Assembly: GCA_000004695.1 (NCBI GenBank)
Contig: CM000151.3
Location: forward strand, 1,856,001 to 1,920,000
Origin: Dictyostelium discoideum
Lineage: Eukaryota
DNA: 64,000 nucleotides
Direction: 5' to 3'
The notes beneath the pieces are model-generated. The model had not been told where the DNA came from and did not search any database. It worked only from the letters and a program-made list of their open reading frames with translations. The position numbers and the translations under genes were made by a program. Positions 6,747-40,277 of the stretch are shown here, in pieces (position 1 is the stretch's first letter; each line of letters opens with the position of its first letter).

Positions 6747-6766
6747 TTATATTTTGAAAGTTTATT

Positions 6767-7091: not shown

Positions 7092-7142
<51 letters not shown>

Positions 7143-7338: not shown

Positions 7339-7371
<33 letters not shown>

Positions 7372-7482
7372 AAAATTTTAATTTTATTAACACAATTTTT
7401 CTTTTTTTTCTTTTTTTTCTCACAAATGATTCATGAATATTATTTAAAGGTATAAAAAGAAAAACAAATAAATAAATAATAA

Positions 7483-8072: not shown

Positions 8073-8112
8073 AATTGAAATGGTTTATAAATAAAGCTTT
8101 AATAACCCATTC

Positions 8113-8157
<45 letters not shown>

Positions 8158-8269
8158 AACTTTATATTCAGATGCACACTATTAATAGTAAAAGCAAAAA
8201 ATAAATAGGAATAATTTAATATATATGTATTATTTCATTTATTTATTTATTCATTAAGATTATAGGTAA

Positions 8270-8901
8270 TTGATAATGTTTTATGATAATATAAAATATT
8301 ACCAATATTCATTTAGGGAAGGATTTTGTAGTGGAAATGGAATAAATAAAATAAGTTGCATTTTTGGTAGTAGTATATTTGATGGTGTGGGTGGCATTGG
8401 TAGAAATGGAGATGATAATGGTGGTGGTGGTGGTAGAGTATTAAGAAGAAGAAGGGATAATAATGATATTAATAGAATTATTGGTGATGGTGGTGGTGGT
8501 GATGGTGATTTAATTTTAAATGAAGAGGATGAATTTATTGATGAAGTGGATATTATGTGTATTAACTTTTTTAATTTAAAAAATTTTAAAAAGTTAATAA
8601 AACATAATATTCATTTTATCATTAGATTTTTTGCTTTAATAATATTACAGTATTTATTTGTTAAATTTTTTGGTCCAGTTTGTTTTGTTTTTACTAGTTT
8701 TTTTTTAATATTTAATAATCTTGGAAAAAAAAAATCAAAGGTAAAAAAAAACAAAAAAAAAAAAAAAAAGTTTTGTTTAGAAAATCTAATTAAAAAAATT
8801 ATTATTAATAACAGGATGAAATTAGTGCATATAGTGTTTTTAATAAAAATCATTCAAATCTTGTCAAAGGGCCAAATTTGATTGCCATAAATTTTGTTTA
8901 A
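8270..8901 (+). CDS. SAYSvFN-domain membrane protein, paralogue 2 (tandem duplicate of the preceding gene); join(8270..8740,8815..8901).
   Basis: Same architecture as paralogue 1: FGPVCFVFTSFFLIFNNLGKKKSK then a GTAAAA donor (8741). The acceptor is ..AACAG at 8814. Exon 2 reads DEISAYSVFNKNHSNLVKGPNLIAINFV*. The N-terminus is Gly/Asp/Arg-rich. The true start codon is uncertain. Confidence 0.55.
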
Positions 8902-9231
8902 CATTAAAAATTGGGACACTCAAATTATATAAAAAAAAAAAATGAAAAAAGGTGAAAATAAAAAATTCTTTTTTTAAACCTTTTTTTTTTTTTTTTTGTG
9001 GTTTTTAAAAACAGATATTTTTTTCAATTGTTTTTTTTTTTTTTTTTTTTAATTTCAAATTAAAAATGATTTTTAATTTTTTAATTTTTTAATATTTTAA
9101 TTTTTTTTCATTTATTTATATTAAAATATTTTCATTTATATAATTTGTATTTATTTAAATGTATTATAATTTATAAATATATAATTTTAATTAAGTAATA
9201 ACAATTAATAATAATAATAATAATAGTAATA

Positions 9232-9334
9232 ATGTTAATATTTATAATATCAATAATAATTACTATTGCCTCAATAATATTTTTATTTGAAACTGTATTT
9301 AATAAAAATAGTAATACTATAAATAATAATAATA

Positions 9335-9395
<61 letters not shown>

Positions 9396-9588
9396 TAATA
9401 TAAAAGAAAACAACATAGACAAAAATAAAGAAATTAAAATAAAAGAAAAATTAATTTTAAATAATAATGACCCAAAAGAGAACGATTTAAAATATAAAGA
9501 AGAATTTAATAATTTTTTAAATAAATTTTCAAAAAATCAAGAATATGGTTATAAAGATAATTTAATTGATAATGAATTAAGAAATCAT

Positions 9589-9636
<48 letters not shown>

Positions 9637-12255
9637 GATGATCAATTTCCAAAATTAAAAGACATAGTTTATTTAGATCATGCAGCGAGTACATTAGCAT
9701 CAATGAATCAAATTGAAGAGATATCAAAAGAGTTAAAGAATTCAATGTTTTGTAATCCACATAGTGTTAATCCAATTGGACTAAAAACCAAAGAAGAGGT
9801 TGATTCAATTAGAGAGAACATATTAAACTATTTCAATGCACCCTATAGACAATATAGTGTAATATTTACAAGTGGTTGTACTGATAGTTTAAAAAAAGTT
9901 GGTGAATATTTTGCATGGACTAAAAATAGTAAATTCTATTATTCATTAGAATCTCATAATTCATTATTGGGTATAAGAGAATATGCATGTGAATCAATTG
10001 GTGGAAGTTCAACCACCTCATTTCAACCAATACCCTCATTATATTTTAAATGTAATAATAATCAATTTAACGATATTTTAGAGATTATTGGTAATAATGA
10101 TGATAATAATAATGAATCATATAGTTTATTTGGATATCCAGGACAATGTAATTATTCAGGTACGAAATATCCATTAGAATTAATAAATAGAATTCAAAAG
10201 AAGTATCCAAAATGTAAGGTGTTACTTGATGCAGCGAGTTTAGTATCAACATCATCATTTGATTTAACAAAGTATCCAGTTGATTTTATGACAATTTCAT
10301 TCTATAAAATGTTTGGTTATCCAACTGGTATTGGCGCATTAATTGTAAAGAATGATAGTGGTGAGAAATGTTTAATCAATAAAAAGTATTTTAGTGGTGG
10401 TACAGTTAATGTTTCAATGGCACAGGAAAGATTTCATGTTGATAGACCCTCATTAAGTGAAAGATTAGAAGATGGTACTATTAATTTCATGAATATAATT
10501 TCATTAAAACATGGTTTCAATATTATAAATAATCAATTAGGTGGTATTGATAATGTTAAATTACACACATTTTCATTGACTCAATATTGTAAAGAGGAAA
10601 TGTTGAAATTGTATCATAGTGATAATTCAAAACAACAACAACTTTGTATAATCTATTCAGATAATCATTTTAAAGATTCAAGTAAACAAGGTTCAATTAT
10701 TAATTTCAATATATTTAGATCAAATGGTGAATTATTTGGATATAATCAAGTTGAAAAGTTAGCATCATTATCATCGATTTATTTAAGAACTGGTTGTTTT
10801 TGTAATCCTGGTGCATGTCATGGTTATTTAAATCTATCAAAAAAAGATATTGAACAACATTTAAAAGATGGTCATGTTTGTTGGGATTCAAAAGATATAT
10901 TAAATGGTAAACCAACTGGTTCAGTTAGAATCTCATTTGGTTATATGAATAATTTTAATGATGTTTATAAATTCATTAATTTCTTAAAATCAAATTTTAT
11001 AAATGATCATAAATTTGAAAAAGAAGTTATAAAATCAAATAAAAAAATTAATAATAATCTTTGTGATATTAGTGATAATATTAGTTGTAGTGGAAGTTGT
11101 GGTGGAAGTTGTGGTAGTAGTGGAAGTGGTATTGAGGATTACCAAGTTCAATATAGTAATAATATAAAAGAAGAAAAAGAAGAAGAAGAAAAAGAAGAAA
11201 TTGAAAATTTAAAAAATGAAAAAGATAATGATGAAGTTTTATTATCAGAAATTTATATTTATCCAGTTAAATCATGTTCAGGACATAAAGTTGTAAATGA
11301 TAAATGGGAATTAGTACCATCAGGATTAAAATATGATAGAGAGTGGACAATTATTGATCAAAGTGGAAATTATATAAATCAAAAAAAGTTACCAATTTTA
11401 GCATTAATTCAAACTGAAATCGATTTAATTAATGATAAATTAATTTTAACAGCACCAGAGATGAAAGTTTTATCAATACCATTATCTTATTATCCAATAT
11501 CTGCTTTTGATCAAATTCAAGTTTGTGGTGATAAAGTTGATGGTTTATTATATGGAGATAAAGATTTCTCAAATACTAGTGGTAGTAGTGCTGGTAGTGG
11601 TGGTGGTGGTGGAGGTAATATTGATAATATTAGTGAATGGTTATATCAATTTATAGGTAAAAGATGTTATTTAGTTAGAAAATCACCAGAATCACATAGA
11701 AAATCAAAAGTTGACTCATCAAATGAAATTTCATTTGCAAATGAATCACCATATCTTTTAATTAATGAAGAGAGTGTATCAGATTTAAAAAAGAGAATTA
11801 TAAAGGATAACCCTGATAGCGTACCTTCTGATTGGAATTGGATAAGTAAACATAGTTTTAGAGCAAACTTTATCATCACTGGTGGTAAGGCTTATCAAGA
11901 AGATCTATGGTCACAATTTCAATTAATTAGTAAACAACAAAATGATACCACTCAATCATCATCGTCACCGTTAGTATTTAATTCAGTTGGTGATTGCAAT
12001 AGATGTAAAATGATATGTATTAATCAAAAGATGGGTATTGAAGAAAGAGAGCCATTATCAACTTTAGCATCCTATAGAAGATCAGGTGGTAAAATTATAT
12101 TTGGCCAACATTTAAATTTTGCTGATTCAATCAAAAGAAATAATTCTCATACAAATGATACAGCTTTAAGTAGTAATGAATCTTCAATCTCATCTTCAAA
12201 TCCAATATTTTTACATGTTCCAAGTAAATTAAAAGTTTTATCAGAGAGATATTAA
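9232..12255 (+). CDS. mocos: Molybdenum cofactor sulfurase (MOCOS/ABA3/HMCS-like): class V aminotransferase (NifS-like) domain plus C-terminal MOSC domain.
   Basis: YLDHAASTL near the start of the catalytic domain. The PLP-lysine motif [18 protein letters not shown] is present. The C-terminal half has MOSC beta-barrel features ([45 protein letters not shown]). The low-complexity TM/poly-N N-terminal 140 aa mean the start codon may be further downstream. Confidence 0.85.
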
Positions 12256-12896
12256 TAAAAATTGTGATATTGTAATTTCAAAAATAATTACATTTATTTG
12301 GTTTTTTTTTATTATTTTTATTATTTTTATTATTATTATTATTATTGATCTGAAGTTTCAAAAGTAATTCCAAAAAAAAAAAAATAAAATAAAATAAAAT
12401 AAAATAAAATAAAAAAAAAAAAATAAAAAAAACAATAAATCTTTAATTCTATGTACAATTTTAATTACAACTGATTTTTGATATTATTTTTTAACTGGGG
12501 TTTCTTGAACAATTGCTCTTTTCTTGATTTGTTTTAAATTGAAAGGTTCTTTTGTTTTGATATCTAATTTTATTTCTTTTCCCTCAGTCGAATTGATTGA
12601 TAAAGGTACGACAAATCTTGTTTGTATATAAACTTATATTTTACAATTTTTTTTTTATAATTATTAAATAGTTGGATATATAAAAGATTGAAGTGCAAAA
12701 TTATTATTAAAAAAAAAAGATAATAAAACTTTTTAGGTCAAAGAAAAAAAAAAAAAAAAAAAAAAAATTTATAAAAATTTAATGAATCATTACAAAACAT
12801 CTGTCTGGACAACAAAATTGACCGATTTTAATTTAGTGAGAACCTTTTGTTTTATTTTCAATAATTTCTTTTTTTTAAAATTATATAATTATTCAC

Positions 12897-12945
12897 TTAA
12901 TTAATTAATTAATTAATTAATTAATTAATTAATTATTTAATAAAA
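12897..12945. repeat. (TTAA)n microsatellite in an intergenic region flanked by long poly(dT).
   Basis: ttaattaattaattaattaattaattaattaatt. Confidence 0.8.
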
Positions 12946-12983
12946 AAATTATTTAATTAATTATTTAATATTTAAATTTTTTA

Positions 12984-13035
<52 letters not shown>

Positions 13036-13110
13036 CACTTCCCAAAATTTTTTATTTTTTTTCTTTTTTTTTTATCAATTTTTTTTTTTTTTAATAATAT
13101 ATTTTTATAA

Positions 13111-17250
<4,140 letters not shown>

Positions 17251-17626
17251 TAAAAATTAAATAAAAAAAAAAAATAAAAAAATTAAAAATTAAAAAATCT
17301 AAAAATAAAAAAAAAAAAAAACTCCATCTTTTAAAACACCAAAAGATTTCGTCAAAGATATTTTTTTTTTTTTTTTTTTCGTGCAATCTTAAGTCAAAAC
17401 ACCCAATAATTTTATTTTTAATATTTTATATGTAACTTTCAAATTTTTTTTTTTTTTGAAAAAAAAAAAAAAAATAAAAATAAAAAAAAAAAAATAATAA
17501 ACAAAAAAAAAAATAAATAAAAAATATTGGGCTCGAAATCAAACTTTACTCGAAAAACATTTCACTAAGTCGAAAATTATCCTATCTTACTCTGAATTTA
17601 ATTTTTTTAAAACAAAAATTAAAAAG

Positions 17627-17657
<31 letters not shown>

Positions 17658-17660
<3 letters not shown>

Positions 17661-18892
17661 TTTGGCTCGAAATCGAACTTTATTTTATTAATAATAACAA
17701 CATTAATTTGTATTTCATTGACTCACTGTAAATCATTCACACCTTCGTTACTATCCTCTTCTTCATCATCATTTTCTTCTTCTTCTTCTTCAAAAAATAA
17801 ATATTTATATTCAATTTCAAGTGTAAACCCAAATATAGAATCAGGTCAAATTGTTTTAGTTATAGACCCATTAACAAATGAAGTTATTAAAAATAAAACA
17901 GTTTATATACCCTATCGTATAATAGATTTATTAGATGTTGATGAGAGTTCAAATAGTGTAAATTTTATTTTTTTTTATTTTTATTTTTTTTTATTTTTTT
18001 ACTTCTCAAAAATTTTACTGACCTTATTTTTTTTTTATTTTTTTATTTTTTTTTTTAGTTATTATTTTTTTGTTTAATTAATGATGCAAAAAATTTATTA
18101 TTATCATTAAATTTAGATACATTTGAATTTAAAGAGATTGGTGGAACTTATGGTGGATGGGATTATACATATGCTAGACAACCTTATATCTTTGTAAATG
18201 ATAATGTATTCTTACCAGCGAAATTATCATTTTATAATGCTACAGGTTTAACAGTACTTCATTGGGATTTCACAGATAAGAATTCAAAGGGTGGATCATT
18301 TAAAGTCATTGAGATTCCAATCGATGATTTCGATGTAGAATCTGGAATTCCATCAATGGGTGGATACGATTATGTGAATGATTTATTATATGTAACTTAT
18401 CAATCTTTAAATGACCTTTCAGAGAATAACTCAACATCAATTGTTTGCTTTAACCCATTCTCAAGTGACACAAATTCAACTCATAAAATTCATACTGGTA
18501 TTACCGATTTAATTCCAGGTTATATTCATTTACTTTTCACTGATCAAAATGAAGGTGGTTCTCTTTATGCTCTTTCAAAATCATTCAATACTCAAAGTTC
18601 AATTGAAGTTTGTAAAATCAATTTCCAAACTAATAATTGTGATCAAATTTTATCAAAAGAAATGGGTGCCTATTATAATAGTTTCGATTATAGACCTTAT
18701 TTCATTGGTGGTCCCCAAAATTCTGATTTAATCCTTTTGGAATTCACTGAAAAAAATGCAAAACCTTTTATAAACTTTCAATCTGTAAATTTATTAACTT
18801 GGAATGAATCTTCTCCAACTTTACTTTCAAATTATTGGACCTCAACTTTTGGTCCAACTTATTTAACTTTTACTTTTTTCGCTTATATTTAA
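17658..18892 (+). CDS. Predicted secreted protein (signal peptide, Ser-rich linker); join(17658..17957,18059..18892).
   Basis: N-terminal signal peptide MFGSKSNFILLIITTLICISLTHC. Exon 1 ends ...ESSNS at a GTAAAT donor (17958). A 101-nt intron ends TTTTTTAG at 18058, immediately followed by an in-frame ORF that continues into track ORF 18356..18892. No family assigned. Confidence 0.5.
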
Positions 18893-19233
18893 AATAATAA
18901 CAATAATAATAATTATATAAATAAAACAAAAAAACAAAAAATAAAAAACCACCAAATTTATTTATATGTTTAAAAAATAAAAAAAACTCTTTTTTTAATT
19001 ATCTTTTATAATATTTTAAATTTAAATTAAAAAGTAAAAACAATTTTTTATTTATTTATTTTAATTTTTTTTTTTAGAAATATATATTTTACAGTTTTTT
19101 TTTTTTTTTTTTTTTATTTATTTTTTTTGTTTTTTTTGTTTTTTTTTTTTTGTTTAGTTCATAATACAGTTTTAATTGTATATATGTAATAATACTATAT
19201 ATAATCTATTTGATTTCTTGATAGCTAAACTAT

Positions 19234-19548
19234 TTAAAAGAAGTGACCATGGTGATGACCGTGGTGGTGACCGTGGTGGTGATGGTGACCAGTTTCATAG
19301 ACGACTGTGGTAGTTGGATAAACCATTGGTTGTGGGACCATAACTGGAGCGCCCATCATTGGTGGTGGGACCATAACTGGAGCACCCATCATTGGTGGTT
19401 GACCGTAGATTGGCATTGGTTGAACCATTGGTTGGACCATTGGTTGGACCATTGGGACGACTGGAGCACCATAAACGCCGGTGGTGTAGGTAATGGTATC
19501 ATGATGGTGATGACCGTGATGACCGTGATGATGATGATGATGACCCAT
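19234..19548 (-). CDS. His-rich small protein with (P-M-V-Q)/(PPMMGAPVMV) repeats; member 1 of a 4-member paralogue set in this window.
   Basis: MGHHHHHHGHHGHHHH ... PMVQPMVQPMVQPM ... PPMMGAPVMVPPPMMGAPVMV ... HHHHHGHHHGHHHGHFF*. The architecture (His blocks at both ends, Pro/Val/Gln core, GHFF terminus) is shared with 30873..31127, 31722..31991 and 32648..32929. Confidence 0.5.
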   Translation of the reverse strand: MGHHHHHHGHHGHHHHDTITYTTGVYGAPVVPMVQPMVQPMVQPMPIYGQPPMMGAPVMVPPPMMGAPVMVPQPMVYPTTTVVYETGHHHHHGHHHGHHHGHFF

Positions 19549-20170
19549 TTTGTATATATTTATATGTGTAAAATTTTATTTGTTTAAATAATGTGAAAGA
19601 AAAAAAAAAAAATTGAAAAAAAAAAAAAAATTGTTTTTATATTTATTTTATTTTTTTTTTATTTTTTCTATTTTTTTTTGAGAAATTAAAAAAAAAAAAA
19701 ATAAAAAAAAATAAAAAAAAAAAAATATTTTTAACGCCCTTAGCGATCTCTTGTTTTTTCTGGTGACTTGTAAAATTAAACAAAAAATAAAACTTATCTT
19801 TATTTTTCATTATTTTTTATTTTTTTTCCCATATTTTTTAAAAATAATTCGAAAAAAATAATTATTACATATTATAATAATATGTAGTAAAAAGAAAAAA
19901 AAAAAAAAAAAAAATTGATGTTTTTTAAAAAGTGGTAAAATTTTGTGTGGTTTGAATTATTACCACTTTTAAAATAAAAATAAACTTAAATTTAGTTTTT
20001 ATTTTTCAAATAATAAAATAAAATGAAATAAAATAAAATGAAAAAAACAATAAAATAAATAATAAAATTATAAAGGTAATTTTAGATGCAATATAAAATT
20101 TATTTTATTTTAATACATTTTATTACATTATATTTTAATTTATTATTTGTTTTATTTTATTATTTTTTTT

Positions 20171-20422
20171 TTAATTACTTTCAATATTATGATATCCTCC
20201 ATTGCCATTAATTTTTTTGATGGATTTACTAAATTCAATATTTAATGTTAGATTTGAAAATTCATAAAAGAATGTCACCATATATGCAAATATAGATAAT
20301 GCCGACATAATTTCAAAAATTGCTGCCAAGTTATCGATAAAAAATTGTGTAATAATATCTTAAATAAAAAATAAAATTAAATATTAATATATTTATATAA
20401 AAAAAAGAAAAGAGAAAACAGG

Positions 20423-20466
<44 letters not shown>

Positions 20467-21131
20467 AATATAAAAATTAAAACTTACAACCAATAAATAA
20501 ACAAGATATACAAATTAATATTTTTCTAATTATTAAAACTTTCAAAGGAATATCACTTGAATTTTTAATATCTAGTATAGTTTGAGTTAATAAATAAATA
20601 AAACCACATAAAAAAAACAATGCTGCAAAGATAACATGAACAAGGTTTGCGTTATGAAATTGAAAAGATGATACACCATGCATTGATAAACCACTAATGA
20701 ATCCCATTGATGTTGAAAATCTATTGAATCTTAATTCTTTTTTCTCTTTTTTATCATCAAAATATTCCTTTTCAATTATATTATTCTTTATAATTAAATG
20801 TTTAATAAATACCACAATAATCATTAAAAATGCTATAATTGATAATCCAAATGTTCCAATACAACTTTCTTTTTTTTTTTTTAAAAAAAATAAAAAAAAA
20901 AACAATTAGAATTTTTGTTTAATGATAACTCAATGATTAAATTATATTTCATTTATATATATACATACCTGGGGCAAAATCGATTGTATCACTTATATAT
21001 GGAATAATTTGATCATCATCTCCACGTACTTCAGTTATAGCATATGTGGTGATGAATGTAATCGGAACAATTAAAGATATTATACATAATATATAAAAAG
21101 GTTTTATTTGTGTAGTTTTTGATGAAATCAT
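20171..21131 (-). CDS. DRAM / Frag1 / Sfk1 (TMEM150-like) family multi-pass membrane protein; three exons, approximately join(21131..20969,20868..20488,20351..20171) on the minus strand.
   Basis: Exon 1 encodes MISSKTTQIKPFYILCIISLIVPITFITTYAITEVRGDDDQIIPYISDTIDFAP, containing the family PYISDT motif. Its donor is GTATGT. Exon 2 encodes ESCIGTFGLSIIAF ... HNANLVHVIFAALFFLCGFIYLLTQTILDIKNS (compare DRAM [22 protein letters not shown]). Its donor is GTAAGT at 20487..20482. Exon 3 follows a TTTAAG acceptor: YIITQFFIDNLAAIFEIMSALSIFAYMVTFFYEF ... ESN*. Exon 2 boundaries are uncertain by 1 nt. Confidence 0.6.
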
Positions 21132-21237
21132 GAAAAAAAAAAAATAATTAATTAAGCATTTGAAAAAAAAAAAAAAAAATTAACTAAAAAAAAAAAAAAT
21201 TGAAACAGAGTTCCACCTTTTCAACAAATTTTGAAAA

Positions 21238-21420
21238 AAAAAAAAAAAAATTAAAATCCAATTCCACCGAGTATTATTTAATTATTTAATTATTTAATTA
21301 ATTATTCTGGTAATTCAAATAAAAATTAAAATACAATTACACCGAGTATTATTTAATTATTTAATTATTTAATTGTTTATTCTGGTAATTCAAATAAAAA
21401 TACAATTGATGATGACAAAC
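21238..21420. repeat. Two tandem copies of an approximately 85-bp AT-rich unit in the 5' flank of the DRAM-like gene.
   Basis: The string ccaccgagtattatttaattatttaattatttaatt..attctggtaattcaaataaaaat occurs twice in direct orientation. Confidence 0.6.
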
Positions 21421-22127
21421 CAATAATGAAATCAAAAATGAATCCAAAAAGAATAATATAAATTTTATTTTATTTATAATTTTATTCTCAAACAATTTTA
21501 ATTATTTAGATTAATCTATTATTTTAGATCTAAAATAAAAATAACATTCCCACCAAAAACAATGATTGAGTATGTATAAAAATGATTATTTTGAGTGGAT
21601 TTGTGTTTAAAATATAATATAATAAATTTTGTACTTGTTTTTAATAATCATTTTTAAAAAATATATTTTTTTTTTTCTTTTATTATATTATTATTTATTT
21701 TTTTAATATTTTTTTTATTTTTTAATTTTTTATATAATAATAAATATTTTTGTTTTTTTTATTAAGTGTGTGATTGGGAATTTAAATTATAATTTAAATT
21801 ATATATAAATTAAAAATATAAACACTTCTCATAAACTACTTTTTATGGCAATGGGTGAAAAAAAAAAATAATATTCATTTAATTAAAAAAAAACACACCC
21901 TAAAAAAGTTTAATATGAATAAATAGTATTTCAATATGATGAAAGAAACATCGAGTGGTGAGTGTGGTAAACTTAACACAGTGTTTAATAAACATGATGA
22001 GAAATATTGAAAATCATACAACAAAACTGATAAATTACTAGGATGTGTGAGTGTGTTGAAAAACATTTTCAATAAATAATGTGATTATTTTTTAATTCAA
22101 TATTGAAGCATTACCTTATTATTATTA

Positions 22128-22158
<31 letters not shown>

Positions 22159-22398
22159 CAATATTGAAGCATTACCTTATTATTATTATTTTTTTTTTTT
22201 TTATTTATAATTTTTTTTTATTTATTCCTAATCATAACACTATAAATATTTATATTTTTTTTATTATTGAAGCTTTACATTATTATTTTAAATATATTTT
22301 TTTTTAATTGATTTTTATTTTAAATCATAAACATTAATAATAAATTAATAAACACATTCTCAAAAAAAAAAAATTTTAATATTAAAAAAAAATCAAAA

Positions 22399-24672
22399 AT
22401 GAAAATTATTATATTATTTTTTATATTATATTTAGTTTCTGTTACGCTCGGAGTTTTAATTGAACCAGTTTTCAAGGGCAAATATTTAATATTTAAAAAT
22501 AATTTTAAAAATTCTTTTGATGGCAATCTAATTCACCATTATTATCAGATACACATGCCAACACTTGACCATGTAAATTTTTAGCAATATCAATTGTCAT
22601 GACAGCAGCGCATGTTCTTGTTGTGCTATTATTTTTACATTCAAAAACCAAGTCATAGATAAAATCTTGAAAATTTCATTTTTGAAAATATGTACTATCA
22701 ATATCATATGTATATTCCAATGATTGTTTTGTAATTTTAAAATCTGAAATTAAAATAAAATTATTAGAAAAAATTAGTGTTGGAGATATCGATATCTTTT
22801 AAAAAAACACAATGTATCGACAAATGATTTATCCTATTTAGTTTTTTATCGACTCAATTTTTAAAAACAAATAAAATGAGGTAGTTATTAATTTTAAATT
22901 ATTTTGTTAAAAAAATGCAACTCTTTTTTTTTTTTTTAGGTAATCCTTTAGGTGACTCAATAGATGCTACAAATTTATTACTCGATTATAAAGGTGGTTG
23001 TGGTACGAGAATAATTCAGTGGCCAAACGGTTATAAATATAGCTTTAATCATTCTAATCCAGTAATTGATAATATCTCTATTGAAAGCTCATCTTTTATA
23101 TCACTTGGTCATAATTTTTGTAATAGTCCCGAGTCAATTCAAGTTTATTTAGATGGTGTTCAAATTGATAAATCAAAAATAAAATAAAATCAATTGATCA
23201 TGAACAATTTGAAATTATTTACAGTCAAGAACATTCAAAATCCATCATTGTGAAAATTGTCTCTGGTGGACTTGAATCAAACAAATTCAAATTAGACTAC
23301 AAACCAATGCCATTAAAAATTAATAGTGTTCCAAGATTAAAAGGTGGTTCAATTACAATAATTGGTGAAAGATTATCATCACAAGTAAATAATTCAACAA
23401 TCATTGTTAAAATTGGTCAATATGATTGTAAAAATGTAATCTCATCAAAAAATGAAATTCTATGTAATTTAGAATCGGTTTCAAATGTTGAAAAAGTCAA
23501 ATTGGTAGATTTACCAGTTAATATCTCAATAAATGGCATTTTTAATGAAAATAATTTATTATTCTCATTCGATACTCCAATAATATCAGATTTTATACTT
23601 CCTCAAGGTGAAGTTAAATTAGTTGGCCATTGTTTTGGTTATTCACAAATAACTCAAATTAATATTGACAATGTATTACAATCCAACATAACAATTAATA
23701 TAAATGAAAAAGAAACAACACTTTTATTTAAGCCAATTCTTCCAATTAAAAAATCAAAGTTATATATAATTGTCAATGGTACAAAATCAAATACTATTGA
23801 AATTGATTCATCATTTTTTGTAAAAAGTGTTCCATCATCACCTTCAGTAAATGGCCAAACTGTAAACTTTACACTTTTCAATATAAACACAAATAATTTT
23901 AATGCAACACCAATTATGACTTTTCAAGATAATAGTTCAATTAAATCAACTGATTATAAAAATTCAAATGAATATTCCACTCATATATACTCTTTTGAAA
24001 TTCCAAAAAGTTGTGGTAGAAATGAAATTACAATAAACAAGTTTACAATTGTTCATTTATAAAATATAAATCTATCTCTTGTGATATTAAATTAGAAGGT
24101 CCGTTTGATCAACTTTGTAAAATCAAATTTAATGGTAAAGATGAGGAGAACAACATTTCAATATCATATTATCCTCCATTAGTATTAAATTCAACAACGA
24201 TTTCAAATTCATCGATTGGTGGAATTATTACAATTTTTGGTAATGAATTTTATAATGAAATTGATTTAATTACAGTTGGTAAAAGCAAATGTTTAAACTC
24301 TACATTTATAAATTCAACATCAATTTCATGTTTTGTGGAACCTTCAAATTTTATTATTAATCAAGCCAAACAACAACAACAACAACAATATGTTAACATT
24401 ACAATTAATGGTAAAAGTGGTGGCAATAATTTAAATATTTATTTTGATAATTCATTTATTGAAGTTAAAAATTAATCAAGCGAAAATGATAAAAACAACA
24501 ACAACAACAACAATGGTAGAAATAAAATTAATGATGATAGTAAAACTGATGGTAGAAGTTTGTATGAAAAATATAAAAAATATTTTATAGCACCTATAAT
24601 AATCGTTAGTTTGTCATTAATTATAGTTGCCTTTAAACTTATACTTTACTTTAATAGAAAAAATGGGCTGTA
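22399..24672 (+). pseudogene. IPT/TIG-repeat type I membrane protein (Tgr / LagC-like cell-surface family) carrying disabling lesions; probable pseudogene or a gene with sequence errors.
   Basis: Signal peptide MKIIILFFILYLVSVTLG at 22399. A possible 366-nt intron (GTAAAT at 22573 ... TTTTTTAG at 22938) joins in frame to GNPLGDSIDATNLLLDYKGG. There are at least three IPT-like repeats (PMPLKINSVPRLKGGSITIIGERL..IIVKIGQYDCKNV..ILCNLE; [48 protein letters not shown]). The reading frame is broken in A-runs near 23180 and 24050. There is an in-frame TAA at 24474. A TM segment FIAPIIIVSLSLIIVAFKLILYF and the short tail NRKNGL* end at 24672. Confidence 0.4.
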
Positions 24673-24747
24673 GTCTATTGGAAATATATTATAAAAGAGA
24701 AAATAAAAAAATTTAAAAATAGAAAAGAGCAAAAATGTATAGATGGT

Positions 24748-25083
24748 ATGAGAGAAATATTAAATAATGCAGAGAAAAATTTTCCTGACATAAAATTAGA
24801 TAATGTAATAACTTATAAAAAGTATAAAATGCCACAAGAAAAAAGTGTAGAAGGAGAACTAAAAGAACAAGCACCTCCTCTAAGTGAATATGACCAATTT
24901 CCAAGTTATTATTTACATTCACCAAAAGATTCACAACCTTCAAATCAAATTGAAACTTTACCAAAAGATTCACCTCCTCCAAATCAAAATGAAAAATTAA
25001 CAGAAGATTCATTACCACCTTCAAATCAAATTGAAACGTTACCAGAAGATTCATCACCACCTCCAAATCAAACTGAAAAATAA
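24748..25083 (+). CDS. Short ORF encoding a Pro-rich 12-aa tandem repeat (SPPPNQ-I/N-E-T/K-L-P/T-E/K-D); a separate small gene or an out-of-frame tail of the preceding Tgr-like locus.
   Basis: Track ORF 24748..25083. The repeats are visible in both nucleotide and protein sequence. The antisense ORF 24713..25090 mirrors the same repeat. Coding status is uncertain. Confidence 0.25.
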   Translation: MREILNNAEKNFPDIKLDNVITYKKYKMPQEKSVEGELKEQAPPLSEYDQFPSYYLHSPKDSQPSNQIETLPKDSPPPNQNEKLTEDSLPPSNQIETLPEDSSPPPNQTEK

Positions 25084-25293
25084 CAGACAATTCATCATCT
25101 CGAGATGGACCATCAAGCTCTTCATAATTTCTTTTTTTTCTTTACTGGACCACTTTCTGTATTTTTAATAATTACAGATTGGAACCCACCAAAGCTATTA
25201 CTATTATTATTATTGTTGTTGTTGTTGTTATTATTTGTAGTATTCATACCACTTGCAAGATCTGCTAATGGGTCAAATACCATTGGTTTATTA

Positions 25294-25531
25294 TTAATCG
25301 ATTAAAGTTGGTTGTTGTTGTTGGGATGATTGGAAATTTGGTGTTGCTGGTGAAGGTCCACTTCCACTTGCTGCTCTTGGTCTACTTCTTTCGCCAGATG
25401 CTGCATTTGGATTATTTTGGATATGTATTATATAATCCAAAAGCCATAAAAAAAAAATAAAACTCACCTGCTCTATTACTATAATTTTCATATTCTGCTC
25501 TAGTATTACTATATGGATCCGAATCATATGA

Positions 25532-25581
<50 letters not shown>

Positions 25582-25884
25582 AACCTTCATCTCTACCATT
25601 GAAAGAGTCTCTTCTGGTTGTTTCTCTTTGGTTACCACCATATGAATATCTTTGGTTACCACCATATGAATCTCTTTGATTACCACCATATGAATCTCTT
25701 TGATTACTACCATATGAATCTGAATCATAACCACCACCATATGAGCCACCTCCATAACCAAAGTCACTGTTATCATTACCAATACCAACATATTTATTTT
25801 GGTTAGTCTTTGCTTTATCTCTTTCCTCTTTAATTCTTTGATCATCTTGTAATAAATCAATAACTTGTTTTGCTCTTTCACGAA
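25294..25884 (-). CDS. C-terminal two exons of an epsin/ENTH-like protein (last ENTH helix plus Gly/Tyr/Asn/Gln-rich tail); join(25884..25459,25400..25294) on the minus strand; 5' exons not found.
   Basis: The minus strand reads VRERAKQVIDLLQDDQRIKEERDKAKTNQNKYVGIG, which is close to the final ENTH helix of epsins (VREKAKQLVALLRDEDRLREERAHALKTKEKL). It is followed by SYGGNQRD repeats and poly-N. A GTGAGT donor lies at 25458..25453. A 58-nt intron ends AAATGCAG. The last exon reads ASGERSRPRAASGSGPSPATPNFQSSQQQQPTLID*. The exon begins at a TTTTAAAAG acceptor (25885/25886) with no ATG in the 175 bp before the neighbouring gene. Confidence 0.5.
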
Positions 25885-26059
25885 CTTTTAAAATAAATTG
25901 TTTATTTAAAAAAATATTTTGTTATTATGTGAATTCAATTTTTAAAAAATAATGAAAAAAAAAAAAAAAGGATGTAAATATTGATGATAATACTAAACTT
26001 TAAACAAAGGATCTTTTAATAAAAAAAAAGACACAAACCACTTTTTTTGTTTTTTTAAT

Positions 26060-27429
26060 TTATTTTGAATTAATTAAAAGATTATAAACTACAAATGATT
26101 TGGTTTGATCTTTTTTAAAATTAGGAATACTTTCAATTGCTTTTACGATTTGAGCTTCAGATATTTTAAAACCCATTTGATTAATAAAGAATTCGACAAT
26201 ATAAAATTGATCCCAACTAATAGCATGTTCCAATAATAAAGATAATTCTTTTTGAGTGTAAATTGAATTATTATTTGAAAGTTTCTTTGTTAAAACTCTA
26301 CGATATTGTTGATCATAAAATAAATGTTGAATTATTCTTAACCAACCATTTTTAATTACACCCTTTAAAAATTCGAATAGAGTTTCTTTGGCACTTTCAA
26401 TACTCACTTCAAAATCGGTACCATCAAATATTGGAAAATAAAATTCATTTAATAGTTTACATAATAAATTGATATCACCACTTTTTTTTACCCAATCTAA
26501 TAATTCCAAAATAACTTGATAATAGGGAGATGGATAACGTGGAATTCGATAATTATTTTCAAAAATCCATTTATTATTAATTTTATCATTTGAGAATATT
26601 GATTTTATACTATTATTATTATTATTATCTAATTTATTTGATATGAATAAACCAATATAATAACCTTTTGAAATTGTAAATCTACCAGATATTAAATCTT
26701 CATATCTAAAATTAAACATCCAATCAAGTAATTTAATTTTATTTGAATTCATATAATTATCATTTAAATGATCATTAAATTCCATTCTATTATTAGTTTT
26801 ACTAAGGATGGTTATTATATCATCAATATCTAATCTTGGATTTCTATTGATTTCTAAATAATGTGTAATTGCATCTTCTGTATATTTATAAATTCCAATT
26901 GGTTTATTAATTATATATGCTGCTGTTTTAATTAAATTTGATCTTTCAAAATTACTGTTATTTTCTTCAAGAATATTTTTTGAAAATGGTAATAATAAAT
27001 CTATATTACTATTGCTATTATTATTATTATTATTATTATTATCACTACTATTACTATTATTATTATTAGTAATTCCTAATAATTGTTCAAATCTTTCTAA
27101 TAAATCAATTCTACCTAGTGAATACCATGATACCATATCTTGAACTCTTTTAAAGAAACTATTTAAATGGTGAAAACAATAATCTAACATTTTAATTGAT
27201 TTAATATGTCTATGAAAATATGAAAATGATGAAAGGTATCCCTGATGTAATGCCATCATTGACTCTTTTTCAAGTACTTTTATTATATTAGAACAATTAT
27301 TATTAACAATACTATCCTCACCACCATATCCTTTAATTGCGATTTCAAGTAACTCTAAATCATCATATGATATTAATAAATGAAATATTGTGAATACTGA
27401 TAAATTTGACCATTCCTTATTCTTATTAT

Positions 27430-27525
<96 letters not shown>

Positions 27526-28034
27526 GATCATTTATTGCATTATTTATAAATTGAATTCTTTGTTTTTTACTATGACAATTTGAAAATAAAATATATGGAT
27601 ATTCTTCACCATGATTACTAACAGATTTGAAATTTTTAAAAATAGGTGGTAACACTTTTGAATCACCATAATGGTTAACTATAAATTTAAATAATTCGTA
27701 ATTTCCATACTCTAATGAAATAATTAAAAAGTATTCCCTTGGATATGGACTAGATGGAAGATGTGCTTTAAATATATCTTTATCAAAATCTAAATTAAAT
27801 ACTATTCTAATTTCAATTTGTTGAATAATTGTTCTACGAATTGGACTTTTTTCTTCACAAAAATCAATTAACTTTTTAATATTTGCTGTAGTTTGTTGAT
27901 AATTATTATTATTACTATCTTCATCATTTATTAACTTTGGTATTATTGATTTTATTTGAAGTTTAAGTTGAGAATTTGATAATTTTGATTTAATTTCATT
28001 AATTAATGGTACAATCAAATTTAAATCATCATTG

Positions 28035-28075
<41 letters not shown>

Positions 28076-28567
28076 TATATATGAAATTGAATAACAATAA
28101 TTTATTAAATCATTAATTGTAAATTTAGTTATATTAGTGGTACTTTTAATATTTATTTTAATTAAATCATCAAAAAGATTTTTTGTAACTACAGAAGATT
28201 GTAAAAAAAGGTAATTTAAAAATTTATATCTTTTTGGCGGATTTGAACGATGAGAATTTCCATTTGATTGGTTTATTAATAAATTTGTTAATAAACCTTT
28301 AATAATACAATTAGTTTTATCAGTATAAGTTTCCCAAAAATATTTAAACATTTTTAAATGTGAATGTATATTTATTAAATTTAAAATGTTTACCAACGAT
28401 TGTTCTTTTATTTTCCCATTTTTAGGTCCAAATTTACAATAGTTAAAATAATTATCTAATAAAACTTGAAATCCTTGAAAATTACCCACCTCTATTAATT
28501 CTTTTAAAACTTTTTTAAAACTAATAAAATATTTACCATAATTTCTAAATAACAATTCAAAGAATTC

Positions 28568-28666
<99 letters not shown>

Positions 28667-29245
28667 TGTTGGTGCATTTGTTTCTTTTTTATTTGATTTA
28701 TATTCTTTTTGAATATTAATAAATATATTTAAATACCATTCGGATTGTGGACAACGACCATCATAATAATAATTTCCAATTATTGGTTCATTTCTTTTGA
28801 TTTTATCTTTTAATAAATTTAAATAACCATTATTTAAAATCCAATCAATGTAAATTAAATCATCATATGAGTGATATTTACAATTTAAATTACCAAATAT
28901 GGTTTTAAATAAGATTTTATTTTTAAAAACTCTCCAAAATAATTGTTCATGTTTTTCAATATCTTTGATTGGTAATTGATAAATGCTACTATTAAATTTA
29001 TTAATTAATTTCTCTTTTGTTAATTCTTGTTTAATATTTCTTGAATCGTTCACAAATTTCTTTATTCTTTCAATTATTTCACTTTTTCTACCATTTGCTT
29101 TTAATTTTAATGTTTTTGCAACTTTTATTAATTCTCTACTTGATTTTGATTCTAATGATTCCATATCAATATCTTCTTTATTAGTGTCTAAATTATTTAT
29201 ACTATCATTCTCTTTTTTAAATTCATCTGTCTCATTATTTATCAT
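26060..29245 (-). CDS. Second member of the lineage-specific LFWK/RVxKNKxLF family (1061 aa), with poly-Asn tracts.
   Basis: Uninterrupted 3.2-kb ORF. The N-terminal region EQLFWRVFKNKILFKTIFGNL ... WILNNGYLNLLKDKIKRNE is paralogous to 13111..17250. A degenerate partial copy lies immediately upstream (29687..30390). Confidence 0.6.
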
Positions 29246-29686
29246 TTCAATTCAAAGTTTATTTGGGGTGGAATTGAAAAAAAAAAAAATGATCAAAAAA
29301 AAAAAAAAAAAGTAAAATAAAAAAAAAAAAAAATAATGAAAATAAAAAAAATTTAAGAATTAATTTAAAAAAAAAAAAATATTAAAGATCTAAAATAACC
29401 ACGATATTAAAAACACCCGACGATAACCCATACTGCCATCTCTTCATTTACTGTACCAAAATCAGACACATTATAATATTCCGATTCTCTCTGAAAACAT
29501 TTGTAACAATACCCGCAATCCTCATTTACCATCCACAACACATTAAAACAAAAGTGGAGCTCTCTACACATTAACACTTCCTTCTCCCTCATTAACTACA
29601 AACTAAAACATTACACTCTAAAACAAAAATTAAATAACAAACAATAAGCAAAGGAATATTACCTTACATTAGAAATTTATTTATTT

Positions 29687-30390
29687 TTTATTAATTAAAA
29701 GATTATAAACTACAAATGGTTTAGCTTCATCTTTTTCAGAATTTATAATTGCCTTTGCGATTTGAGGTTCAGTTATTTTAAACCCATTTGATCAACAAAG
29801 AATTCGGCAATATAAAATTGATCCCAACTAATAGCATGTCTCAATAATAAAGATAATTCTGTTTGAGTGTAAATTGAATTATTACTTGAAAGTTTCTTTG
29901 TTAAAACTCTACGATATTGTTGATCATAAAATAAATGTTGAATTATTCTTAACCAACCATTTTTAATTACACCCTTTAAAAATTCGAATAGAGTTTCTTT
30001 GGCACTTTCAATACTCACTTCAAAATCGGTACCATCAAATATTGGAAAATAAAATTCATTTAATAGTTTACATAATAAATTGATATCACCACTTTTAAAA
30101 GCCAATCGATGTCATTTATATCATCATATGAGTGATATTTACAATTTAAATAATTAAATATGGTTTTAAATAAAATTTTATTTTTAAAAACTCTCCAAAT
30201 TCTTTCAATTATTTCACTTTTTCTACCATTTGCTTTTAATTATAAAGTTTTTGCTACTTTTGTTAATTATTAACCAGATTTTGATTCTAATGATTCCATA
30301 TCAATATCTTCTTCATTATTATTATAATCTGTCTCATTATTTATCATTTAAGTTCAAAGTTTATTTGGTTTGTGGAATTAAAAAAAAAAA
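29687..30390 (-). pseudogene. Decayed, internally deleted tandem copy of the gene at 26060..29245 (3' 450 bp plus short internal pieces plus 5' end).
   Basis: 29690..30100 matches about 26070..26480 at 90% identity or better, with a 1-nt deletion (ttttaaaaccc vs ttttaaaccc) causing a frameshift. 30100..30180 matches about 28860..28930. 30185..30245 matches about 29060..29110. 30290..30385 matches 29160..29270 (the 5' end, start codon and upstream AAAGTTTATTTGG box). The 110-aa ORF 29773..30105 is 95% identical to the parent C-terminus. Confidence 0.7.
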
Positions 30391-30872
30391 AAAAAAAAAA
30401 AAATTTTATGTTTTGGTGGAAATAAAAAAAAAATAATTAAAGCCCCAAGAAACTCAAAAGCGCCAAAAGTTAACTTGGTGTATTAATGAAAAAAAACCAT
30501 GATATTTAATAAGGGGAGTCGAATAGAAAATAAAAAAATATAAGTAAAAAAAATAAAAAAAAAGAGGCGACAAACCAACCAGCGTCGCATAAAATTACTT
30601 TTCACCACTTTAATGCTGAAATTTTTACATTCAACCTTAATATTTAAACAAACAAAAATTGAAAAACAGAGCGGTTATTTTGATTTGAATAAGAAAATTA
30701 TGACCAAAAATAAATAGATAAATATTTTATTAAACATAAAAAAAAAAAGTAAAAAAAAAAAGTAAAAAAAAATAAAAATAAAGATAATAATAAATAGAAA
30801 AAATAAATTACAAGATTGTTTTTTTTTTTTTTTTTTTTTATTTGTTGAGTAACTTTTAAAACTTCAAACTAT

Positions 30873-31127
30873 TTAAAAGAAATGACCATGATGTCCGTGG
30901 TGTCCATGGTGACCATGATGACCATGATGGTGGCTAGTTTCGATGACAACATTGGTTGGTGGATAAACTACTGGAGCACCCATAACGACTTGTGGTTGAA
31001 CCATCATTGGTGGTTGACCATAAACTGGCATTGGTTGAACCATTGGTTGGACAATTGGGGTAGTTGTGTAAGTAACGTGTTCGTGGTGACCGTGATGACC
31101 GTGATGATGATGACCGTGTGGAGGCAT
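30873..31127 (-). CDS. His-rich small protein, paralogue 2 (MPPHGHHHHGHHGHHEH ... PIVQPMVQPMPVYGQPPMMVQPQVVMGAPVVYPP ... HHHGHHGHHGHHGHHGHFF).
   Basis: Same architecture as 19234..19548. The Dictyostelium start context is an A-rich 5' flank. Confidence 0.5.
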   Translation of the reverse strand: MPPHGHHHHGHHGHHEHVTYTTTPIVQPMVQPMPVYGQPPMMVQPQVVMGAPVVYPPTNVVIETSHHHGHHGHHGHHGHHGHFF

Positions 31128-31721
31128 TTTGTTTTATATTATATTTATTTAATGTTTGAAAAAATTTAATGAATGAATGAAAAAAAAAAAAATAAGTTTT
31201 TATATTGTTTTTTTTATTTTATTATTTTTTTTTTTTAATAATTTTTTTTTTTTTTTCAAAAAATCAAGTGACGTCAAAAAAAGATTTTTTTAATATTTCG
31301 AAAGAAAATTAAAAATTTGGGAGTTTAAAAAAAAACAAAAATTCGAAAATAAAAAGATATTTTTTTTTGTTTTTTATTTCACAATTATTTTTTCTCAAAA
31401 TTAAATTATCAAAATGTTATAACTTTAATTTTTGACCTGATTAAAATTAATTTTATTATATTTTATTTTATTTTTAGAATTTTTTAAAAAAAAAAAAAAA
31501 AAAAAAGTTTAATTTTTACCAATTTTCTCAATTTCTCTTTTTTTGTTTAGGAATATAGGGTTTTAGATTTCATTTAATATAACAATAAATATAAAAATTA
31601 AAAAATAAAATAATAGGTTTTTTTTATTATTATTTTTTTATTTTAGGTAATAATTAATTATAATACAAAGTTTTTTTTTTTTATTTTTGTTTTTGTTGAA
31701 AACTTTTGTTATTTGAATAAT

Positions 31722-31991
31722 TTAGTGGTGACCATGATGACCGTGGTGGTGATGATCATGATGACCATGATGGCCATGGTGATGATGATGTCCATGGTGG
31801 TGACCAGTTTCTAAGACAATTGTAGCTTGTGGATAAACTACTGGTGGTTGAACATAAACTGGTTGGACAACTGGTGGTGGTGCATAAATTGGTTGAACAA
31901 CTTGTGGTGGTGCATAAACTGGAGTGATTGTAATATGTTCATGGTGACCATGGTGACCATGGTGATGATGATGATGACCGTGTGGAGGCAT
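31722..31991 (-). CDS. His-rich small protein, paralogue 3 (core repeats PVYAPPQVVQPIYAPPPVVQPVYVQPPVVYPQ).
   Basis: MPPHGHHHHHHGHHGHHEH ... GHHHGHHHHHGHHGHHDHHHHGHHGHH*. Confidence 0.5.
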   Translation of the reverse strand: MPPHGHHHHHHGHHGHHEHITITPVYAPPQVVQPIYAPPPVVQPVYVQPPVVYPQATIVLETGHHHGHHHHHGHHGHHDHHHHGHHGHH

Positions 31992-38597: not shown

Positions 38598-40277
38598 TTA
38601 ACCCTGGAATTCATTTTCTATTTTCGTAATTGATTCATATGGAATGAAATGAATTCCTTTCTTTAAATAAGATTCCATTTGATGATATCTATCTCTCCAT
38701 TCAGAACTTGAAGTGAATAAATCTTTATGTTGATTTACAAGTGTTTGAATGATACAAAATTTCCATTCCTTTGCCAATTTTGTAGATTCATTTTGTCTAT
38801 TCATCAAGTATTCAAAGAAACCAGCCATTTTAATGACTTCAGAAGCACCCCATGAATGAACACATAATGCTTGAATTAATGAAAAGCTTGCCATTTTTAT
38901 ATCCTCAATTGGTGAGTTATAATTCTTTGTCATCTTTGACATTAGTAAACCATCTGGTAGGGATCGATAAATTTGATAAAGTTTATCAGACACTAAATAA
39001 ATCTTGTCATTTGGTTTCAACATTATTGAGAATGAATTATAACTTGTCACGATTGTCTCTTGATCATTTGATAAAAAGAATTCAGTATATGATCTAACAA
39101 ATGATTCATCCCTAATTATTAAATCCAATCCTTTAGAATTCTTACCAATGATACCAATTGATGCTAAAATTGTCATTTTCAACTTTCTAGATAATTCATT
39201 CTCTGAATGATTCAAATGATATTTAAATATCTCTATAAACTTTTTACCATATTCACCATTAATAAAGAATAACATCTCTGTCTTTTCATTTGATAATTGT
39301 GATACATTTGCTAAAAATGATATAATTTTATTTAAAATTGGTGATTCTGATAAAATATCACTACTACCACTACCATCATCATTGGTGGTGGTCGTTGTTG
39401 TTTTCTTAAAAATTTCATATAATGAATTTATCATACCAGAATTAATAATTGATTGTAATGCAACAGTGTATTTACACGATTCTTGAATGATTTCTAATAT
39501 ATTCATTTGAGTGATTTGATCTTTACCTGTAGAATCATTGAAAGCTGATACTAGTATACTTATGAATGGTTCTCTATATTTTTTAAAAACTTGTTCATTA
39601 TATTCCTCCTCTTCTTTTGAGATTGATTTTGTATTTGAATTAATAATTGATGGATCTATTGAACTGTTACCAATTGAATGATTTGGTTTGAGTGTTTCAA
39701 TTTGTGGTACACCAACACCTAAACTATTATTTGTATTCGACTCTTCCAAATTCAAATTTAAATTCAATAATAGTGAACCAATTACAAGAATTCTAAAAAA
39801 TATAACCTTATTTGAATTTGCTAATGAATATTGTAATACTAATTTTTTAAATGTTTCATTAAACCAATCGCTTTTCTCATCATTATTCAATAGGATAGGT
39901 TTATTGTATTTTTTATTTGATATTATTGTTGTGAATAAATCTATTACTGCTTGTGAGATACTGATAGAGTCAGAGGTGATTTGAGTGAAAACTAATTGTA
40001 AAATACCAGTCTCATTGAAATGTTGCATTGTAATCTCTGGATTCTTCTTTATTGCCATATTTAACATTTTAATTGTAACTAATGCAACCTCGGTATGTAC
40101 TTCGCTACTACCACTTAAAGCAATCTTTAAATAAGGTTCTATCTCTTTAGTTACTAATAATTTATAACTATTAATATTATTTGTTAATGTTTTTTTAATA
40201 TTATAACAACAATCTAATAATTCATCTTCATTTTTACTATTTTTTAATTCTTCAAATGATTTAATTAATTCATTCAT
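38598..40277 (-). CDS. 26S proteasome non-ATPase regulatory subunit 5 (PSMD5/S5b, Hsm3-like assembly chaperone) homologue; ARM/HEAT-like repeats.
   Basis: 559-aa single-exon ORF. The C-terminal block EDIKMASFSLIQALCVHSWGASEVIKMAGFFEYLMNRQNESTKLAKEWKFCIIQTLVN resembles the PSMD5 C-terminus ([56 protein letters not shown]). Assignment is from memory of the family and needs a profile search. Confidence 0.55.
   Translation of the reverse strand: MNELIKSFEELKNSKNEDELLDCCYNIKKTLTNNINSYKLLVTKEIEPYLKIALSGSSEVHTEVALVTIKMLNMAIKKNPEITMQHFNETGILQLVFTQITSDSISISQAVIDLFTTIISNKKYNKPILLNNDEKSDWFNETFKKLVLQYSLANSNKVIFFRILVIGSLLLNLNLNLEESNTNNSLGVGVPQIETLKPNHSIGNSSIDPSIINSNTKSISKEEEEYNEQVFKKYREPFISILVSAFNDSTGKDQITQMNILEIIQESCKYTVALQSIINSGMINSLYEIFKKTTTTTTNDDGSGSSDILSESPILNKIISFLANVSQLSNEKTEMLFFINGEYGKKFIEIFKYHLNHSENELSRKLKMTILASIGIIGKNSKGLDLIIRDESFVRSYTEFFLSNDQETIVTSYNSFSIMLKPNDKIYLVSDKLYQIYRSLPDGLLMSKMTKNYNSPIEDIKMASFSLIQALCVHSWGASEVIKMAGFFEYLMNRQNESTKLAKEWKFCIIQTLVNQHKDLFTSSSEWRDRYHQMESYLKKGIHFIPYESITKIENEFQG

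Follow-up and report, generated by a model that had tools for sequence, protein, structure and literature searches.

The locus described here raises the question of how the end of an ENTH-domain gene can stand without its beginning. Within the window, the 64-kb stretch of Dictyostelium discoideum DNA that was analyzed as a whole, the minus-strand segments 25884..25468 and 25400..25294 code solely for the last helix of an ENTH domain, followed by a low-complexity tail. That an ENTH/epsin gene is represented here by its 3′ part alone had been recognized in the preliminary description, and tblastn, a custom ENTH HMM and a PDB sequence search agree on this point. The orphan exons are most likely a non-functional internal piece of an epsin/EpsinR-type gene, carried together with a decayed tgr gene in a ~4.6-kb insertion of the AX4 lineage. 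The fragment and its immediate surroundings comprise the following features:

25885..26009, minus strand: putative intron remnant, 125 nt, AT-rich, between the insertion boundary and the acceptor, without donor, ATG or upstream exon
25468..25884, minus strand: exon-like segment 1, with a phase-1 acceptor; encodes the last ENTH helix (VRERAKQVIDLLQDDQRIKEERDKAKTNQNKY) and, after it, a tail rich in G/Y/S/N
25401..25467, minus strand: intron, 67 nt, GTGAGT...TGCAG, 24% GC
25294..25400, minus strand: exon-like segment 2; ASGERSRPRAASGSGPSPATPNFQSSQQQQPTLID, ending in TAA TAA TAA
25122..25283, minus strand: out-of-frame tail continuation, VFDPLADLASGMNTT-N(n)-SFGGFQS, which aligns colinearly with a full-length amoebozoan-type epsin in its tail

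A complete ENTH domain comprises ~150 residues arranged in stacked alpha-helices, with a lipid-binding N-terminal region. When the ENTH domains of human CLINT1 and EPN1 (epsin-1) were compared with the window by tblastn, both matched only at 25891..25769 (E=3e-9 and 3e-5), and the match corresponds to the last about 40 residues of the queries (query residues ~123-166). A custom HMM of eleven ENTH domains was applied, unfiltered, to each fragment of the six-frame translation of the 64-kb window and gave a single significant match, at 25921..25415 on the minus strand, covering profile positions 118-164 of about 165 (E=1e-12); no second ENTH segment was found in any of the six frames of the 64 kb, the next best match having E=5. 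In the PDB sequence search the fragment gave 12 matches, all of them to ENTH proteins and each lying where the crystallized domain has its C-terminal end, with CLINT1/EpsinR at the top (E=2.4e-7), and among the matches listed in the search of representative proteins the top ones mostly start at query residue 1 of the fragment product. The similarity to ENTH, which was to be judged by a profile search, thus held up in the custom HMM. The Pfam ENTH profile (PF01417) gave nothing at E<=1 with the 176-aa conceptual product, as is expected because only one helix out of eight or nine remains. The surviving segment is therefore homologous to the last ENTH helix, and ~117 of the ~150 residues of a full domain, helix 0 and the phosphoinositide-binding core among them, are absent. 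Its 38 residues VRERAKQ...KYVGIGND correspond to the C-terminal ENTH helix of the epsin/EpsinR proteins (CLINT1, yeast Ent3/Ent5), with the best match to CLINT1/EpsinR.

The fragment had been described as beginning at a splice acceptor and hence as needing upstream exons, and this reading is correct. An AG at 25886-25885 on the minus strand, preceded by a T-rich tract, opens the frame VRERAKQVIDLLQDDQRIKEERDKAKTNQNKYVGIGNDN, which runs on into the G/Y/S/N-rich tail; within the tail of segment 1 (25468..25884), SYGGNQRD is encoded by four 24-bp tandem repeats. The closest match of the conceptual product, P0001, lies on a 3.4-kb contig of 47% GC (L001), which carries an intact homologue with the ENTH exons directly upstream of the helix exon and a phase-1 intron in the same Val codon (VRERAKQ); P0019 confirms the spliced form of this gene. 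The fragment thus starts at a genuine, conserved exon boundary and derives from genomic DNA rather than mRNA, because the intron position is common to the fragment and L001. Outside the ENTH helix no similarity between L001 and the window was detectable. As in an unprocessed pseudogene, the introns and exon boundaries of the parent are kept, namely the phase-1 acceptor shared with L001 and the 67-nt GT-AG intron.

At the 3′ side, the start at 25884 and the second exon at 25400..25294 stand as first described, but the end of the first exon had been placed at 25459, which is 9 nt too far, since the sole canonical donor is the GTGAGT at 25467 and segment 1 accordingly spans 25884..25468. The frame reaches ...SGERSRPRAASGSG only after the 67-nt intron (25401..25467) has been removed, and SGERSRPRAASGSG aligns with NRPRAATGN of P0064, the best full-length relative of the fragment (672 aa). 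Together with the out-of-frame ORF 25283..25122, the conceptual product aligns colinearly to residues 132-371 of P0064, RPRAASGSG of the fragment pairing with RPRAATGN and PTLID with PSLLD. The order of elements in the tail is that of the amoebozoan-type epsin represented by P0064 and P0019: a stretch rich in G and Y comes first, RPRAA(S/T)G and then P(T/S)L(I/L)D follow, and FG motifs within an N-rich stretch come last. The three stops behind PTLID would most simply reflect a frameshift lesion, because the out-of-frame ORF continues the colinear alignment with the epsin tail, an alignment of low-complexity sequence that provides moderate evidence. The tail homology stops about 40-80 bp short of the stop of the convergent tgr gene, and ~300 further residues of P0064 have no counterpart ahead of the 3′ end of that gene. 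The 3′ truncation and the frameshift had both been overlooked in the preliminary description.

The 175 nt between the acceptor and the stop of the neighboring gene (26059..25885) contain no ATG on the minus strand, as had been noted, and the custom HMM found no ENTH N-terminal exon on either strand in the 38 kb upstream within the window. Compared with the working ENTH clathrin adaptors of the epsin/EpsinR type, which combine a start codon, an ENTH domain and an unstructured tail with motifs for clathrin/adaptor binding, the fragment is without the start codon, ~117 of the ~150 ENTH residues and the last ~300 residues of the tail, and is frameshifted. Because start codon, promoter and 5′ exons are lacking along with most of the domain, including its lipid-binding part, the fragment is probably not expressed as an ENTH protein; nor could it act as one, the lipid-binding bulk of the domain being absent.

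The wider locus probably explains why the 5′ half is missing. Its features in the window are as follows:

17658..18892, plus strand: DDB_G0272726, exact AX4 protein match
21131..20171, minus strand: Frag1/CWH43-like gene DDB_G0272939, exact AX4 protein match of the spliced model or ORF
21242..21391, no strand assigned: junction duplication, two tandem 75-bp copies (21242-21316 and 21317-21391), 93% identical
21392..26009, no strand assigned: putative insertion (~4.6 kb), apparently specific to the AX4 lineage and absent in ACTFIR, ACTFIW, ACTFIY and D. citrinum
22399..25083, plus strand: tgr-family pseudogene, convergent to the epsin fragment; it encodes Ig (TgrO1-like) and IPT/TIG domains plus a TM segment and a cytoplasmic tail
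26060..29245, minus strand: LFWKV/LFWRV-family gene, a 1061-codon ORF with a weak SAP domain match, the probable ancestral resident
38598..40277, minus strand: DDB_G0272951, exact AX4 protein match

Exact AX4 protein matches were also obtained in the window for DDB_G0272716, DDB_G0272714 and TPS3/DDB_G0272706 (window ORFs and two spliced models), and together these matches assign the window to chromosome 2 of AX4 (8.48-Mb record); DDB_G0272949 is Bcas3 (PMC8032249). A relation of the window to the boundary of the known duplication on AX4 chromosome 2 was also considered, but the data contain nothing that speaks to it and the idea was dropped. That the next 4.3 kb upstream of the fragment are occupied by an LFWKV-family gene and a degenerate copy of it had been stated before and is borne out, the former being the LFWRV-motif ORF at 26060..29245 and the latter a 3′ remnant at ~29676..30105, which is 93% identical to 26055..26485.

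For the orthologous site, D. citrinum was compared along with the three isolates ACTFIR, ACTFIY and ACTFIW, which carry the label D. discoideum or D. cf. discoideum. The alignments delimit the flanks, in window coordinates, as follows:

D. citrinum (L009): left flank to 26056, right flank from 21145, just before the Frag1-like gene
ACTFIR (L011): left flank to 26010, right flank from 21304
ACTFIY (L012): left flank to 26010, right flank from 21381
ACTFIW (L013): left flank to 26010, right flank from 21304

In D. citrinum and the three isolates alike, the block is absent at the orthologous site and the flanks are contiguous: the LFWKV 3′ flank (...ATTAAAAGATC) passes directly into the AAT-rich spacer and the Frag1-like promoter, and tblastn detected no ENTH-like sequence at any of these loci. 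Because the LFWKV gene abuts DDB_G0272939 in the four block-less genomes, this gene is taken to be ancestral at the site and the ENTH piece to be the newcomer, and parsimony across the four genomes points to an insertion rather than to repeated deletion. The orphan acceptor lies 125 nt inside the edge of the insertion, so that the breakpoint fell within an intron. At the right junction, the 75-bp tandem duplication spans insert and target. Of the hallmarks of mobile elements, no TSD and no tRNA genes nearby were found for the block; apart from low-complexity matches and the 75-bp duplication it has no terminal repeats in inverted or direct orientation, and no second copy of 21392..26009 is present in the window or the comparison loci. 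In this region AX4 differs from the other isolates by 6-15%; the insertion thus appears to be younger than the split from isolates at this divergence, is not necessarily very recent and is only loosely dated.

The other occupant of the block belongs to the tgr (tiger) family of Dictyostelium, which is polymorphic and rich in pseudogenes. Like members of this family, the companion at 22399..25083 encodes a signal peptide, a TgrO1-like Ig domain (Pfam Ig_TgrO1, E=1.8e-12), an IPT/TIG domain (TIG, E=8e-6), a TM segment and a repeat-rich cytoplasmic tail. Unlike working members, in which Ig and IPT/TIG domains lie in one intact ORF, it has the domains in a broken frame: there are at least four switches, some of them without room for an intron, and for this reason the companion is read as a tgr-family pseudogene.

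Other explanations of the orphan exons have to be weighed against this one. An assembly artefact, which the preliminary description had considered, would mean that the 5′ half was lost or misplaced in AT-rich repeated sequence; the gene copies in tandem and the long tracts of AAT and of single nucleotides in the region could favor it. However, a 3.6 Mb contig of the separately deposited assembly GCA_054883475.1 (L010, L002) is colinear with window positions 10147..31133 at 99.63% identity (99.8% within the block ~21392..26009); the order is unchanged there, and the orphan helix exon is again present with no further ENTH sequence. The 36 mismatches and 6 gaps over 21 kb show that this assembly was not copied from the reference, and an assembly error is extremely unlikely. 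An intact gene whose first intron is exceptionally long, or whose 5′ exon is trans-located, with nested genes in between, would account for a canonical acceptor at a conserved intron position, but its probability is close to negligible: the custom HMM found no ENTH N-terminal coding sequence on either strand anywhere in the 64 kb, of which 38 kb lie upstream, the fragment is frameshifted and without its 3′ half, and the locus appears to be a recent insertion with no resident ENTH gene in its history. The proposal that a resident ENTH gene was cut in situ by insertion of the LFWKV gene and its partial copy draws on the short distance of the acceptor from the LFWKV stop (175 bp) and on the variable copy number of the LFWKV region: ACTFIR has three tandem copies, ACTFIW two to three, and AX4 one plus the 3′ remnant (~29676..30105). 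It is highly implausible, because the LFWKV gene adjoins DDB_G0272939 without any ENTH sequence in D. citrinum and the three isolates, and the custom HMM found no ENTH 5′ exons past the LFWKV block in the window; the polarity of the event would thus be the reverse of that first suggested.

The block might instead be ancestral and deleted in other lineages, the ENTH fragment then being part of an old, decayed resident pair of epsin and tgr genes. Both block genes are heavily decayed, the junction duplication is 7% diverged, and on L001 a weak TIG match occurs in an ORF that begins no more than 2 kb downstream of the intact ENTH gene, which could hint at an old linkage. This explanation is nevertheless unlikely, because D. 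citrinum and three lineages of the D. discoideum complex would all have to have lost the block by the same deletion, with matching junction coordinates; L001, moreover, resembles the window in nothing but the ENTH helix, and the weak TIG linkage is discounted because TIG domains are very common in dictyostelids. Exonization, by which the orphan exons would be spliced to LFWKV transcripts to give a lineage-specific chimeric protein, is suggested by the strength of the acceptor and by the annotation of GCA_054883475.1, in which a single 1212-aa gene runs from window position 29243 to 25292 and appears to fuse the orphan exons to the upstream gene (the tgr-like gene is annotated there as a 605-aa model). 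The simplest splice model that yields 1212 aa, however, joins a weak GTCGAA donor at 26197 to the 25885 acceptor and reads the exon in a non-ENTH frame straight through the 67-nt intron, so that the annotation looks like an ab initio fusion artefact. HMMER found no protein like either product among assembly-predicted proteins, those from RNA-derived contigs included, and the three wild isolates and D. citrinum make a normal LFWKV protein of 1024-1078 aa. In view of the annotation, some read-through or splicing into the acceptor may occur, but we regard exonization as quite unlikely.

If the orphan exons are a non-functional piece of an epsin/EpsinR-type gene, a parent gene is to be sought. The preliminary description had allowed that the sequence could be a remnant of a paralogue, which comes close to the truth as far as the remnant is concerned; the intact parent gene was not located. 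An exhaustive HMMER search of 1.84 billion representatives with the 176-aa product gave 427 relatives at E<=0.001 and no close protein among them (best score 59.6 bits, none with E<1e-30), and it returned no D. discoideum ENTH protein. Word-indexed searches with the 176-aa product, with the 1061-aa neighbor and with a reconstructed full ENTH domain likewise yielded no D. discoideum ENTH protein, but all three also missed the known close relative P0064; in the search with the neighbor, scoring was confined to the 8000 candidates with the most shared words, probably owing to the poly-N runs. The silence of the word-indexed searches is therefore weak evidence against the existence of a parent gene. 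On the ENTH repertoire of D. discoideum, the literature consulted yielded only the general statement that, in non-opisthokonts, EpsinR-type proteins are the sole representatives of this ENTH family (PMC4450294). For this reason the known D. discoideum epsin gene would be the obvious candidate donor, and the fragment is probably a copy or relocated piece of the epsin gene of this genome. Alternatively, a second ENTH gene may have existed, of which the fragment would be all that is left.

In its structure the fragment resembles the unprocessed partial pseudogenes that arise by segmental duplication or DNA capture, in that it keeps introns, has an intron-internal breakpoint, is cut at both ends and broken in frame, and lies in a lineage-specific insertion beside another pseudogene. 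It differs from such fragments in that only the 75-bp tandem duplication at one junction, and no TSD or mobile-element hallmark, was found. According to the model favored here, the captured sequence would start within the intron before the last ENTH helix and continue into the first part of the disordered tail, where it is apparently frameshifted past PTLID, and would end well short of the end of the full-length relative. The ~4.6-kb piece (~21392..26009), with the epsin fragment at one edge and a decayed tgr-family gene (allorecognition-type Ig/TIG) making up the remainder, would have entered the intergenic spacer that separates the LFWKV-family gene from the Frag1-like DDB_G0272939. This event probably took place in the lineage leading to AX4, after its separation from the other sequenced isolates of the D. 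discoideum complex.

A more far-reaching interpretation, that the epsin tail exons have been recruited as 3′ exons of the LFWKV gene or that tgr-family DNA mobilizes pieces of neighboring genes around the genome, is very unlikely. If the former were true, the AX4 lineage would hold a very young chimeric gene in which a tail with clathrin/adaptor motifs, or a novel frame, has been added to an unrelated protein. As a relic of the ordinary pseudogene kind, whose missing 5′ half is not to be expected at this locus, the fragment offers nothing new for epsin biology. For annotation, the orphan exon is best labelled a pseudogene fragment and should be neither extended into a gene nor fused with the upstream gene. 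What the locus provides is a small, dated case of structural turnover on D. discoideum chromosome 2, in a variable region where copy change in the LFWKV tandem array, a tgr pseudogene and a 4.6-kb insertion that separates the laboratory lineage from other isolates occur together.

Several features lie within or at the edge of the insertion that carries the orphan epsin exons in AX4:

21242-21391: tandem duplication of 75 bp, 93% identical, placed precisely on the insertion's right-hand junction
22399-25083 (+): tgr-family gene with signal peptide, Ig_TgrO1 domain, TIG domain, transmembrane segment and PPxNQ-repeat tail, interrupted by at least four frame switches
25599-25760 (-): 4-5 tandem 24-bp repeats coding SYGGNQRD, in the surviving epsin tail

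The junction duplication is made up of 12 bp of insert and 63 bp of target, and may be repair-associated. The tgr-family gene is probably a pseudogene, and is nonetheless carried as a 605-aa protein in the annotation of an independent assembly (GCA_054883475.1). The repeat units of the epsin tail are 92-94% identical among themselves.

In the same annotation, the orphan epsin exons are joined to the LFWKV gene in one 1212-aa model (window 29243-25292; positions 1889-5840 of L010, the corresponding region of that assembly). The simplest splice model that fits 1212 aa places the epsin exon in the wrong frame and reads through the small intron, and the fusion is a probable annotation artefact. 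An intact epsin-type gene with at least four short introns is found on L001, a contig of SRR30000138 with 47% GC; there the helix matches the window fragment at 76% identity, in an alignment that takes in approximately 22% of the query, and about 1.5 kb downstream comes an ORF that gives a weak TIG hit.

The LFWKV/LFWRV-motif gene adjoining the epsin fragment forms a tandem array of variable copy number (window 26060-30105; 1-9798 of the ACTFIR locus, L011; 2939-9732 of the ACTFIW locus, L013). One full copy is present in AX4, together with a 3′ remnant at 29676-30105 that shares 93% identity with 26055-26485; there are three copies in ACTFIR and two to three in ACTFIW, while a single copy is found in ACTFIY and in D. 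citrinum. Another member of this family is found among other genes of the window:

2667-6398 (+): ankyrin-repeat protein
9232-12255 (+): aminotransferase class-V, MOSC_N and MOSC protein (molybdenum cofactor sulfurase type)
13111-17250: LFWKV-family member with an ELLFWKV motif, 1379 aa
19234-19548, 30873-31127 and 31722-31991 (all -): three small paralogous ORFs
33671-~37500 (-): large gene encoding BCAS3_WD40 and BCAS3 C-terminal domains

The first two are ordinary neighbours. The proteins of the small ORFs have a P/V/Q-rich core flanked by His/Gly-rich ends (MPPHGHHHHGHHGHH... / ...HHHGHHGHFF); their exact translations are absent from the protein collection, and such ORFs also occur in the wild isolates and D. 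citrinum, as genes of 100-106 aa. Judging from gene-ID order, the BCAS3-domain gene is probably DDB_G0272949, the Dictyostelium Bcas3, which is an interactor of KinkyA (PMC8032249).

ACTFIR and ACTFIW, deposited as D. discoideum, and ACTFIY, deposited as D. cf. discoideum, share no more than about 84-95% identity with AX4 across this region (loci L007, L011, L012 and L013 against the window). Divergence of this order is far above the usual diversity within a species, and reflects either fast evolution of the region or the existence of cryptic lineages.
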